A DNA stretch of 64,000 nt from assembly GCA_005400705.1 (NCBI GenBank), contig GCA_005400705.1_4079.1; one strand, 5' to 3'. Below are positions 44,179 to 50,640 of the stretch, one piece after another (within the stretch, counting starts at the first letter, position 1; each line of letters opens with the position of its first letter). Under the pieces are notes generated by a model. That model had not been told where the DNA came from. It made no database searches and saw nothing but the letters and a program-made list of their open reading frames with translations. The stretch is from Escherichia coli (GTDB lineage: Bacteria > Pseudomonadota > Gammaproteobacteria > Enterobacterales > Enterobacteriaceae). The position numbers and the translations under genes are program-made.

Positions 44179-44206
44179 GGGACAAACTGCTTTTTGGTGC
44201 TATAAT
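44179..44206 (+). promoter_or_regulatory. sigma70-type early promoter (GGGACA-N16-TGcTATAAT)
   Basis: GTGGGACA 44177-44184, 16-nt spacer, extended -10 TGcTATAAT 44198-44206; shares the core TGGTGCTATAAT with the promoter at 49898. Confidence 0.6.
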
Positions 44207-49804: not shown

Positions 49805-49816
49805 ATAGTTTTTATG

Positions 49817-49850
49817 AACCAAGTAATGTTTTGTTACTTGGTTTTTTTAT
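49817..49850 (+). terminator. intrinsic terminator
   Basis: AACCAAGTAA / TTACTTGGTT 10-bp stem with 7-nt loop followed by TTTTTTTAT. Confidence 0.75.
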
Positions 49851-49897
49851 ACTTCAAAAATGTACTAAGTACTTTTTTATTTTTTTATGATATTAGT

Positions 49898-49925
49898 GGG
49901 AAGATTTTAAAAATGGTGCTATAAT
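49898..49925 (+). promoter_or_regulatory. sigma70-type early promoter (GGGAAG-N16-TGcTATAAT) with no ORF downstream
   Basis: GTGGGAAG 49896-49903, 16-nt spacer, extended -10 TGcTATAAT 49917-49925; near-identical core to the gp55 promoter. Confidence 0.55.
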
Positions 49926-49973
49926 GTTTGTTGTAGTAATGACAATCCTGTTGAATGCAGAAATGCATATAAA

Positions 49974-50060
49974 TTAGAACCTGATCCTATCGAAAATGTA
50001 GATGGCAGATGAGCAGTTCAACAGTGCGATGAGCAAAAGAAACCCGTTAGATGTGGGCAT
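49974..50060 (-). CDS. candidate 28-aa hydrophobic peptide (MPTSNGFLLLIALLNCSSAIYIFDRIRF), antisense to the putative ncRNA
   Basis: ATG 50058-50060 on the minus strand preceded by GAGGGG at 8-nt spacing; predicted single hydrophobic helix; no convincing minus-strand promoter found. Confidence 0.2.
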   Translation of the reverse strand: MPTSNGFLLLIALLNCSSAIYIFDRIRF

Positions 50061-50362
50061 AGTTTGAACCCCTCACGGCAATGCGGCTCAATAAAGAACT
50101 CCGATAAGCATACAGAGAGTTCCTAGATAGACATATAAGGATCGCACCTTACCAGATTTGCTAAGGGAGTTTATTAAGTGATTTTAATAAACAGCCTGAA
50201 GTTTGATTGTATAGACTTTCAGGTGAGTGTCAGGATGATTAAGACTGACGACCGTTGCACATGACTGCGATAGAGAGAAACAGAGCAACCCGCTTTCGTT
50301 CTTAATATATTTTTAAGAAATTCGCAATACAATAAATGCTGAAACCATCAGCGTCAAGAAAT

Positions 50363-50388
50363 AGAGACTTCATTGTCTCTTTTTTATT
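50363..50388 (+). terminator. intrinsic terminator (AGAGAC-TTCATT-GTCTCT, TTTTTTATT)
   Basis: 6-bp stem with 6-nt loop followed by a T-tract; a second GC-rich 9-bp hairpin (50393-50414, UGCG loop, one U-G pair) follows with no T-tract. Confidence 0.6.
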
Positions 50389-50600
50389 GTCTTCATTCCC
50401 CTGCGGGGGGATGAAAATGTCCTCAACAAATCCCGTCAAGTATTAAATCTTTTAAAGTTCTTTATAATTAATTTAATTAAATGAATATGAGTTACGTAGT
50501 AACGAATATTCTTCAGCTAACGAATGAAATGAGTTAGATGAATCTAATAATATTAAAATTAATCCTTTCATAATTCAATTCAAATAATTCTGTAGTTTAA

Positions 50601-50630
50601 AACCAAAAAAACCAGCAACAATGTGCTGGC
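50601..50630 (-). terminator. intrinsic terminator after the 69-aa/278-aa operon
   Basis: CCAGCA-CATTGT-TGCTGG hairpin on the minus strand followed by TTTTTTTGG. Confidence 0.6.
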
Positions 50631-50640
50631 TATATGAAAA

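Follow-up and report, generated by a model that had tools for sequence, protein, structure and literature searches.

Large intricate RNAs are rare, and most of those that are understood, such as the ribosome, RNase P, self-splicing introns and tmRNA, are catalytic or mechanistically central. The antitermination elements put (~65 nt) and EAR (~120 nt) are simple stem-loops. The large RNAs GOLLD and ROOL occur mainly in Firmicutes and prophages, usually as single copies near tRNA genes, according to PMC7567579, which cites Harris & Breaker 2018. Here we analyse an RNA locus in a 64,000-nt stretch of DNA (the window; GenBank assembly GCA_005400705.1, contig GCA_005400705.1_4079.1, deposited as Escherichia coli), which matches Escherichia phage EC22.5-2 / ECO103 4-12-1 at ~99% identity and closely resembles PBECO4, 121Q and G17, the Asteriusvirus "Rak2-like" jumbo myoviruses of ~350 kb. 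The plus strand of the window at ~49932–50545 is almost certainly the gene for a large, compactly folded and conserved RNA and not for a protein.

Like GOLLD and ROOL, this RNA measures 500–800 nt, is phage-borne and combines many helices and pseudoknots with variable peripheral arms. Unlike them, it is found in virulent enterobacterial jumbo phages in 4–5 copies per genome, each behind a promoter and mostly before a gene, and it shows no covariance-model similarity to either at any threshold. With HK022 putL and putR, Bacillus subtilis EAR and lambda nut it appears to share a promoter-proximal position, several copies per genome that head different operons, downstream terminators and co-orientation with the genes behind. 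It differs from these elements in its doubly pseudoknotted core of ~400 nt and in the lack of any sequence or structural similarity, and an action on polymerase is putative. The family stands out for unusually clean covariation and two pseudoknots, and we rate it as a new class of large structured RNA. Our literature search revealed no description of it; it could be anonymous among the ~10,000 automatic candidates of a large screen of viral structured RNAs, in which we found no mention of jumbo phages (PMC10690425).

Covariation and architecture of the RNA

A preliminary description of positions 49851–50640, made from the letters of the window, had proposed a novel structured RNA of no known class in a locus free of open reading frames (ORFs) of 60 aa or more. 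The locus indeed holds no such ORF on either strand, the longest wholly inside being 45 aa, and it is GC-richer than its flanks, as that description had also stated (0.40 at 49950–50249 vs 0.24–0.33). A single-sequence fold gave z = −3.5 for the plus strand and −2.4 for the minus strand relative to shuffles, and five terminator-like sites lie within 1 kb where 0.1 would be expected from shuffles. The proposal of a new RNA is strongly supported by covariation among its homologues and by the lack of a match in Rfam 15.

Helices were derived from column-pair statistics and RNAalifold and then fixed on the window sequence (Table 1). In a MAFFT alignment of 65 representatives (A1), 84.4% of the cells at 98 proposed pairs form standard pairs, compared with 40–46% when the partners are slid by 1–3 columns, so that the alignment for compensatory changes suggested in the preliminary description proved strongly positive. 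Changes on both sides of the pair were observed for 71 of the 98, and the 975 double-change cells compare with 346 ± 16 after shuffling, none of 500 shuffles attaining the observed value. The best-supported helices are P3, P4, PK1, P9, P10, P11 and P16; the low A1 scores of P1 (69% paired) and P7 arise solely because MAFFT shifts the register there. In a cleaner sub-alignment of the core (A2) the paired fraction rises to 93.5% (40–52% with slid partners), and P9, P10 and P11 are each fully paired across 64 distinct sequences. A covariance model of the core (R1) recognized the window copy with 92 bits (E = 3e-19) and, with filters off, nothing else in the window, in which blastn likewise detected no paralogue; the three other copies of the genome are situated outside it. 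Thus, our data show an RNA with at least 12 covariation-supported helices and two pseudoknots, with invariant single-stranded blocks between them.

The RNA is doubly pseudoknotted, since PK1 joins the P7 loop to a strand at 50327–50332 and P9 crosses both P10 and P11. PK1 exists in at least seven distinct variants in the alignment, among them UCGAAU/AUUCGA, UCAUGU/ACAUGA and CUGAAUU/AAUUCAG. The core domain (50229–50332) contains the invariant blocks GACCGU, AGA-A-AC and ACCCGC. On its 5′ side, the P3 region (50030–50090) holds invariant ACCCG and CGGCAAUGCGGC blocks, and the segment 50126–50169 carries an invariant GAUAGA 5′ of P5 and an invariant UAAGGGAG at 50162–50169. The GNRA-capped hairpin noted in the preliminary description corresponds to P1a. 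Many paralogues have a ~45-nt module (UUUUGCGAU...UACAAUAUAGAUCCGUCCAAAUUU) in place of the P6 hairpin, and P6 pairs were left uncounted because the alignment is unreliable there. Farther 3′, the P15 sequence itself appears constrained, since it varies solely through G-U wobble, and the CAAAUCYCGUCA motif behind it is a near-repeat of CNAUCANCGUCA at 50345–50356. The long hairpin after the A/U-rich tract varies across the family. P16 is argued to be RNA rather than a protein-binding DNA palindrome, because differences between paralogues of one genome are compensated. A long-range helix suggested by RNAalifold, GAUAG (50126–50130) with CUAUC (50345–50349), was dropped; it is mismatched in many copies, including that of the window, and GAUAG is invariant.

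Several records (among them PP886230, PQ390715, OR699282 and ON568341) annotate 2–5 tiny 'hypothetical proteins' or a 'repeat_region' over the RNA gene, and homing-endonuclease-like ORFs adjoin several copies. One might thus suppose that the locus holds small protein genes, or a DNA-level repeat serving as protein-binding sites or as a recombination hotspot for homing endonucleases, in place of a functional RNA. We find this scarcely credible. A conserved small ORF, which the preliminary description had named as evidence that would speak against an RNA, was not found by sequence comparison of 82 copies: none is conserved in position or frame and the median longest ORF is 50 aa. Indels among the copies do not come in multiples of three, and entire arms are exchanged between invariant blocks. 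Moreover, hundreds of compensatory changes are strand-specific and include G-U pairs, which can form on one strand only. These strand-specific changes and non-triplet indels effectively exclude both coding and DNA-repeat readings, and the annotations of tiny ORFs or repeats are probably mis-annotations. The peptide MKMSSTNPVKY, which starts in the GC hairpin, was rejected, as its frame is not conserved in copies with 1-nt indels.

At the gathering threshold, Rfam 15 gave no hit in the whole window to any family, including GOLLD, ROOL, HEARO, OLE, tmRNA, RNase P, group I/II introns, riboswitches and T-box; a covariance-model search of this kind had been proposed in the preliminary description. 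At permissive E-values, the window copy matched merely terminator-like fragments far below threshold, and 15 loci with diverse copies matched nothing inside the element. ARAGORN found no tRNA or tmRNA gene in the window, in line with the earlier remark that a tRNA signature is lacking. Two resemblances seen by eye, to a hammerhead core (CAGAUGAG...GAAAC) and to RNase P CR-V (ACAGAGCAACCCGCUU), were rejected in view of an unconserved key U, different helices around the motifs and the absence of any matching Rfam model.

Table 1. Features of the RNA locus and location of island copies; coordinates refer to the window unless a contig is named.
Feature	Coordinates	Strand	Remarks
Putative homing-endonuclease-like ORF, 323 aa	48833-49804	+	Between endonuclease VII gene and RNA promoter
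Intrinsic terminator, 13-bp stem and T-run	49816-49850 (stem 49816-49844)	+	Insulates RNA unit from upstream homing-endonuclease-like ORF
Promoter GTGGGAAG-N13-TGCTATAAT	49896-49925 (GTGGGAAG 49896-49903; extended -10 TGCTATAAT 49917-49925)	+	
P1	49948-55 : 50017-24	+	Encloses P1a and P2; 8/8 covarying pairs in earlier alignment
P1a GAAA hairpin, UGCA-GAAA-UGCA	49956-49967	+	
P2, conserved loop GAAAAUGUA	49981-91 : 50001-08	+	88% paired; 7/8 pairs compensatory
P3	50030-34 : 50086-90	+	100% paired in 65 sequences; 4/5 pairs compensatory
P3a, inner to P3	50044-47 : 50075-78	+	100% paired in 65 sequences
P4 hairpin	50096-101 : 50117-22	+	93% paired; 6/6 compensatory, with as many as 6 pair types at one position
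P5 hairpin	50136-40 : 50147-51	+	83% paired; 3 covarying pairs
P6, variable-length arm	50169-50192	+	Simple hairpin in window copy; read from sequence and alignment columns 335-425
P7 hairpin	50195-50223	+	Loop UUGUAU 50207-12; 7/7 covarying pairs in earlier alignment
PK1 pseudoknot	50207-12 (UUGUAU) : 50327-32 (AUACAA)	+	95% paired; 5/6 pairs covarying
P8	50229-33 : 50245-49	+	Core pseudoknot domain 50229-50332
P9, crosses P10 and P11	50254-58 : 50285-89	+	100% paired; 3 compensatory pairs
P10	50266-70 : 50322-26	+	100% paired; 4 compensatory pairs
P11	50273-77 : 50293-97	+	100% paired; 4 compensatory pairs
P12	50299-305 : 50313-19	+	Core pseudoknot domain
First conserved motif CCAUCAGCGUCA (family consensus CUAUCAUCGUCA)	50345-50356	+	CGTCA invariant; near-repeat at 50427-38
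Intrinsic terminator AGAGAC-UUCAUU-GUCUCU and U-run	50363-50388 (hairpin 50363-50380)	+	Would yield ~456-nt RNA
P15, nearly invariant GC hairpin UUCAUUCCCC-UGCG-GGGGGAUGAA	50392-50415	+	83% paired; no U-run behind
Second conserved motif CAAAUCCCGUCA (CAAAUCYCGUCA)	50427-50438	+	Invariant alignment columns A504-A514
A/U-rich tract	50440-50482	+	3′ of second conserved motif
3′ hairpin GAAUAU/AUAUUC, inner GUUAC/GUAAC	50483-88 : 50506-11; inner 50491-95 : 50499-503	+	
P16 hairpin, flanks UCA/UGA	50517-21 : 50533-37	+	5/5 compensatory; 85% paired
Terminator of convergent baseplate-hub operon, locus end	50601-50631 (hairpin 50631-50610, then T-run)	-	Annotated as terminator in phage G17
E. coli island copy	L148:14883-15601 (LR-29-1 chromosome NZ_AP027515.1; also NZ_CM130020.1)		Next to ffs
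Second island lineage, Silvania hatchlandensis contig	L145:7672-8282	-	
Second island lineage, metagenome contig	L102:2447-3058	-	

Distribution in jumbo phages and bacterial islands

The family is confined to Rak2-like jumbo phages plus a few enterobacterial integrative islands. By blastn the locus matched 72 phage records, with identity down to 70–77% over ~49962–50447 and 4–5 separate matches per genome; the hosts of these phages are Escherichia, Klebsiella, Salmonella, Erwinia, Yersinia, Serratia, Pectobacterium, Cronobacter and Xanthomonas. The locus is not unique. In the 352-kb EC22.5-2 genome, which we assembled from seven pieces, it is one of four paralogous copies, all on the plus strand, at ~89.9, 143.4, 223.2 (the window copy) and 333.2 kb. 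These are 70–85% identical to one another, and in their alignment arms that differ in length and sequence sit between invariant blocks. For Serratia phage BF and Yersinia phage Yen9-04 the best match is a paralogue in another gene context.

Scanning IMG/VR with two exact patterns gave 19 and 60 loci, the pattern based on the CAAAUCCCGUCA motif retrieving 4–5 copies per genome. Five copies, on one strand in each genome, are present in BF, CBB, GAP32, Yen9-04 and two ~371-kb metagenomic contigs; three further pattern matches were discarded as chance matches within coding sequence. A scan with a core pattern found 70 metagenome loci but, in 100,044 genomes of bacteria and archaea, no more than a single contig, and a search of a plasmid collection gave no match. 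With nhmmer we obtained 142 hits, 107 of them full-length and 82 distinct, which form 56, 27 and 18 clusters at 90%, 80% and 70% identity, respectively. Paralogues have a mean identity of ~65%, and four or five are kept in every genus, always on one strand. The RNA explains why a stretch of >70 deposited genomes repeatedly appears "empty" or mis-annotated. Jumbo phages of E. coli, Klebsiella, Salmonella and Erwinia that can be cultured and are under development for therapy carry 4–5 paralogues per genome, which makes the RNA experimentally tractable.

A full-length copy (439 bits) resides in two of 5,426 complete E. coli genomes and has the promoter, terminator, GC hairpin and motif all present; its closest phage relative is just 80.6% identical. 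The surrounding island of ~10 kb contains a split integrase, IS3, an endonuclease-like ORF, a membrane-protein operon and a resolvase, as well as the candidate defence system PDC-M45 (DuOB, DUF488, mSLOG-DUF4326). In a second island lineage, the order is an integrase or large serine recombinase, the RNA, an opposite cI-like HTH gene and a co-oriented membrane-protein gene homologous to that of the E. coli island; on the metagenome contig, this lineage is bordered by cysQ and cpdB, which are chromosomal genes. In both lineages the RNA is co-oriented with the homologous membrane-protein operon farther downstream. Copies beside candidate defence genes suggest that giant phages and host islands are connected at the level of RNA, be it as sensor, decoy or hijacked element.

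Transcription signals, downstream genes and possible function

The early-class promoter of the preliminary description, held there to be a near copy of the gp55 promoter, was recovered in front of the RNA, and its sister of the same class, GTGGGACA-N-TGCTATAAT, lies at 44198 upstream of a gp55-like sigma-factor gene. A simple TTGACA/TATAAT scan misses the RNA promoter because its −35 is non-canonical. The class, GTGGG(A/G)AC/AAG-N13-15-TGnTATAAT, is found in the window at 222, 44198 and 49917 (+) and genome-wide at ~21 sites on the plus strand only, of which just four head this RNA. It resembles the 'divergent RpoD-like' class, with a −35 of TGAAACG, of phages CBB and GAP32 (PMC5259590). The TGnTATAAT extended −10 is near-invariant in the alignment and precedes 76 of the 82 homologous copies. 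From the promoter, transcription is predicted to start at ~49932.

The bounding terminators reported earlier at 49817–49850 and 50601–50630 (−) were found at 49816–49850 (+) and 50631–50601 (−), and equivalents of the former are visible in the alignment upstream of several other copies. The preliminary description had further predicted a ~450-nt transcript closed at 50363–50388. The terminator and the GC hairpin behind it exist, but the element continues for another ~160 nt. Sequence conservation and covariation persist past the terminator to ~50545, and we therefore take ~49932 to ~50545 as the RNA unit. Hairpin and U-run at this position form an insertion that is present in 43 of 82 copies and missing in the paralogue copies named P1 and P3 of the same genome. 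The predicted products are ~456 nt if transcription is terminated and ~610 nt if it reads through, and start site and 3′ ends alike are predictions.

Among 76 copies that could be scored, the next downstream ORF is co-oriented in 56, and it mostly starts within ~60 nt of the 3′ end of the element. The remaining 20, including the syntenic group of the window copy, face a convergent gene. Another extended −10 promoter was detected in just two of 80 tails, so most downstream genes seem reliant on read-through or on another promoter class. In 32 of the 80 tails, CGUCA is succeeded by TATAA(A/T), a sequence that recalls the late motif of T4 type described in CBB (PMC5259590). The downstream genes belong to unrelated families, each tied to one paralogue group across genera (19, 11, 9 and 5 members), and one of ten has a Pfam assignment, ADP-ribosylglycohydrolase.

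Because most copies lie immediately in front of co-oriented genes, a role as a cis-acting leader is no less likely than that of a free-standing non-coding RNA (ncRNA). Our preferred reading, to which we give a probability of about 0.4, is that the RNA is a promoter-proximal leader in cis controlling transcriptional read-through into the operon behind it, as inferred from the anatomy of the copies. The RNA would fold during transcription and target the elongation complex from which it emerges, either unaided or helped by a factor that the phage makes, and polymerase would either stop at the terminator behind the core (50363–50388; ~456 nt) or read through the 3′ module into the genes downstream. 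Such logic would be that of put-, nut- or EAR-like antitermination carried out by a much larger RNA, and its outcome would be delayed expression of 4–5 specific operons. It would also explain the retention of a separate, diverged copy at each locus, and the cassette could allow islands to turn on genes upon phage arrival.

Several features appear to favour the cis leader. The element begins at the promoter in 76/82 copies and an intrinsic terminator sits right behind the core in 43/82; the next ORF is co-oriented in 56/76, apparently without a sigma-70 promoter of its own in most tails. Locus-specific, diverged paralogues kept on one strand would be typical of cis elements and not of single trans-acting phage ncRNAs. 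Each paralogue group keeps its own downstream gene family across genera, in the numbers given above, and the putative leader is co-oriented with the membrane-protein operon in both island lineages. Other observations weigh against it. No co-oriented gene follows the window copy or the syntenic orthologues of Munch, GAP32 and G17, which face the convergent hub operon instead; the terminator is missing in about half of the copies, and a search for a conserved terminator/antiterminator alternative pairing found no consistent partner for the 5′ arm of the terminator. Known cis antiterminator RNAs measure 65–120 nt, and the RNAs of such size and complexity known to us are trans-acting or catalytic. 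Finally, a short distance to the next gene is to be expected by default where a phage genome is compact.

The main rival explanation is a free-standing structured RNA acting in trans (a ribonucleoprotein scaffold, a ribozyme, a decoy for host or defence factors, or a GOLLD/ROOL-like self-assembler) that is released by its own terminator or by processing and whose position upstream of genes is incidental. The syntenic copy of the window type would suit it well, being fully insulated (terminator, promoter, RNA, terminator) with no co-oriented gene behind, as would the terminator of the 43 copies and the size, two pseudoknots, GNRA loops and invariant junctions, which are like those of ribozymes and large ornate RNAs. 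Abundant ORF-less transcripts are also known from other lytic phages, PA5oct (PMC7318152) and ICP1 (PMC7567579). We nevertheless regard a trans-acting RNA as somewhat unlikely: trans-acting phage ncRNAs are normally single-copy, whereas 4–5 diverged paralogues lie at fixed loci in every genus here, about half of the copies lack the terminator and would be transcribed together with the next gene, and a conserved 3′ module continues beyond the terminator.

A ligand- or tRNA-sensing attenuator, in which an aptamer core would be coupled to a terminator platform, would suit the layout of promoter, structured core, terminator and gene found in many copies, and multi-copy leaders before different genes recall T-box and riboswitch regulons. 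It is very improbable in view of the ~48% of copies without a terminator and of the unconserved antiterminator pairing, the sole recurrent complement being the palindrome AGUACU. There is no shared functional theme downstream, where nine of ten genes have no Pfam family, and the Rfam searches gave no riboswitch or T-box match. To our knowledge, the core is 2–3 times larger than any known aptamer.

The convergent gene behind the window copy poses no difficulty for a further, minor rival, an origin or primer RNA, which needs no downstream gene. The RNA resembles ColE1 RNA II and the T4 origin transcripts in being a structured transcript of ~500 nt that has a promoter of its own, a G-rich element close to the 3′ part and an A/T-rich DNA tract downstream, and in occurring, as in T4, at several loci per phage genome; it shows no homology to them. 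As with ColE1 RNA II, the T4 oriF/oriG transcripts or mitochondrial LSP/CSBII, the ~500-nt transcript, once folded, would stay annealed as a persistent R-loop at the G6/C4 element and serve as primer for DNA synthesis within the A/T-rich tract that follows CAAAUCYCGUCA. The 350-kb genome would then have several origins, and islands would borrow one for replication by the phage. The 4–5 copies spread around the genome in a single orientation (89.9, 143.4, 223.2 and 333.2 kb of 352 kb), the nearly invariant CCCC...GGGGGG element followed by the invariant motif and then the A/T-rich 50440–50482, a promoter class common to recombination and sigma-factor genes, and islands without replication genes of their own are consistent with such a role. 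We consider it improbable nonetheless, because in half of the copies the intrinsic terminator separates the core from the proposed R-loop and primer site, P16, which lies 3′ of the putative start of synthesis, continues to covary as RNA, and the Rfam searches gave no similarity to RNA II. Cumulative GC skew has no inflection at the four loci, though skew is dominated by the direction of transcription and is for this reason uninformative on origins.

An extension of the cis-acting leader, which we think distinctly unlikely, is that this class of RNA, by itself or together with a phage factor, reprograms the host RNA polymerase by which it is transcribed, as an RNA antiterminator several times the size of put or EAR, and that bacterial integrative/defence islands captured the promoter-RNA cassette as an infection sensor. 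Such a sensor would fire the membrane-protein operon, abortive-infection-like in its action, only upon infection by a Rak2-like jumbo phage. In a variant on the same footing, the conserved pseudoknot core would be a new ribozyme.

Neighbouring genes and variable modules

The RNA locus is flanked by an endonuclease VII gene (−) and the convergent baseplate-hub operon (−), with the portal gene soon after. The 323-aa ORF upstream of the RNA has repeated treble-clef zinc fingers (DUF723/DUF4379) and a C-terminal nuclease-like 'EYDG' region, and it looks like a free-standing homing endonuclease inserted before the RNA promoter. Salmonella phage Munch has an ORF in the same place that is 47% identical, and G17 and GAP32 are without a counterpart. 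HNH-type or other homing-endonuclease-like ORFs adjoin other RNA copies as well (e.g. loci L086 and L021). A functional pairing of the RNA with the adjoining ORF was rejected, given that the ORF is optional and that of the E. coli island is not significantly related. A nuclease-associated RNA of the HEARO/omega-RNA kind, which is always next to its cognate nuclease gene (IscB/TnpB), was likewise set aside, as an endonuclease-like ORF adjoins certain copies only.

An optional module of ~35–45 nt, with a conserved GUACAA...AGAUCCGUC in a UUUUG/CAAAA stem, is inserted in the P6 or P12 arms of some copies (A1 columns ~345–400 and ~545–578; for example the paralogue copy named P2, L008:45342-46025) and is absent from the window copy. 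A possibly related module occurs in the P3a arm of some copies, and within the family the insert seems to behave as a transposable structural module. In GAP32/BF-type copies (e.g. L003:2946-3629) the palindrome AGUACU is repeated in P1a, P7, the terminator and the 3′ hairpin, and the window copy has none; such arms could in principle pair with one another or between molecules.

The distant Rak2-like relative PA5oct has four ORF-less transcribed regions of 235–618 nt, ncRNA001–004, some of which are very abundant (PMC7318152). Neither nhmmer --max nor covariance model R1 revealed similarity between ncRNA001, 002 or 004 and the RNA family, and the gene that neighbours the PA5oct ncRNA has no homology to the hub gene next to the copy in the window. 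By eye, ncRNA001 (L146:764-999) and ncRNA004 (L147:1117-1735) share the motif AAGGATGATGCT, and these two may be paralogous to each other.

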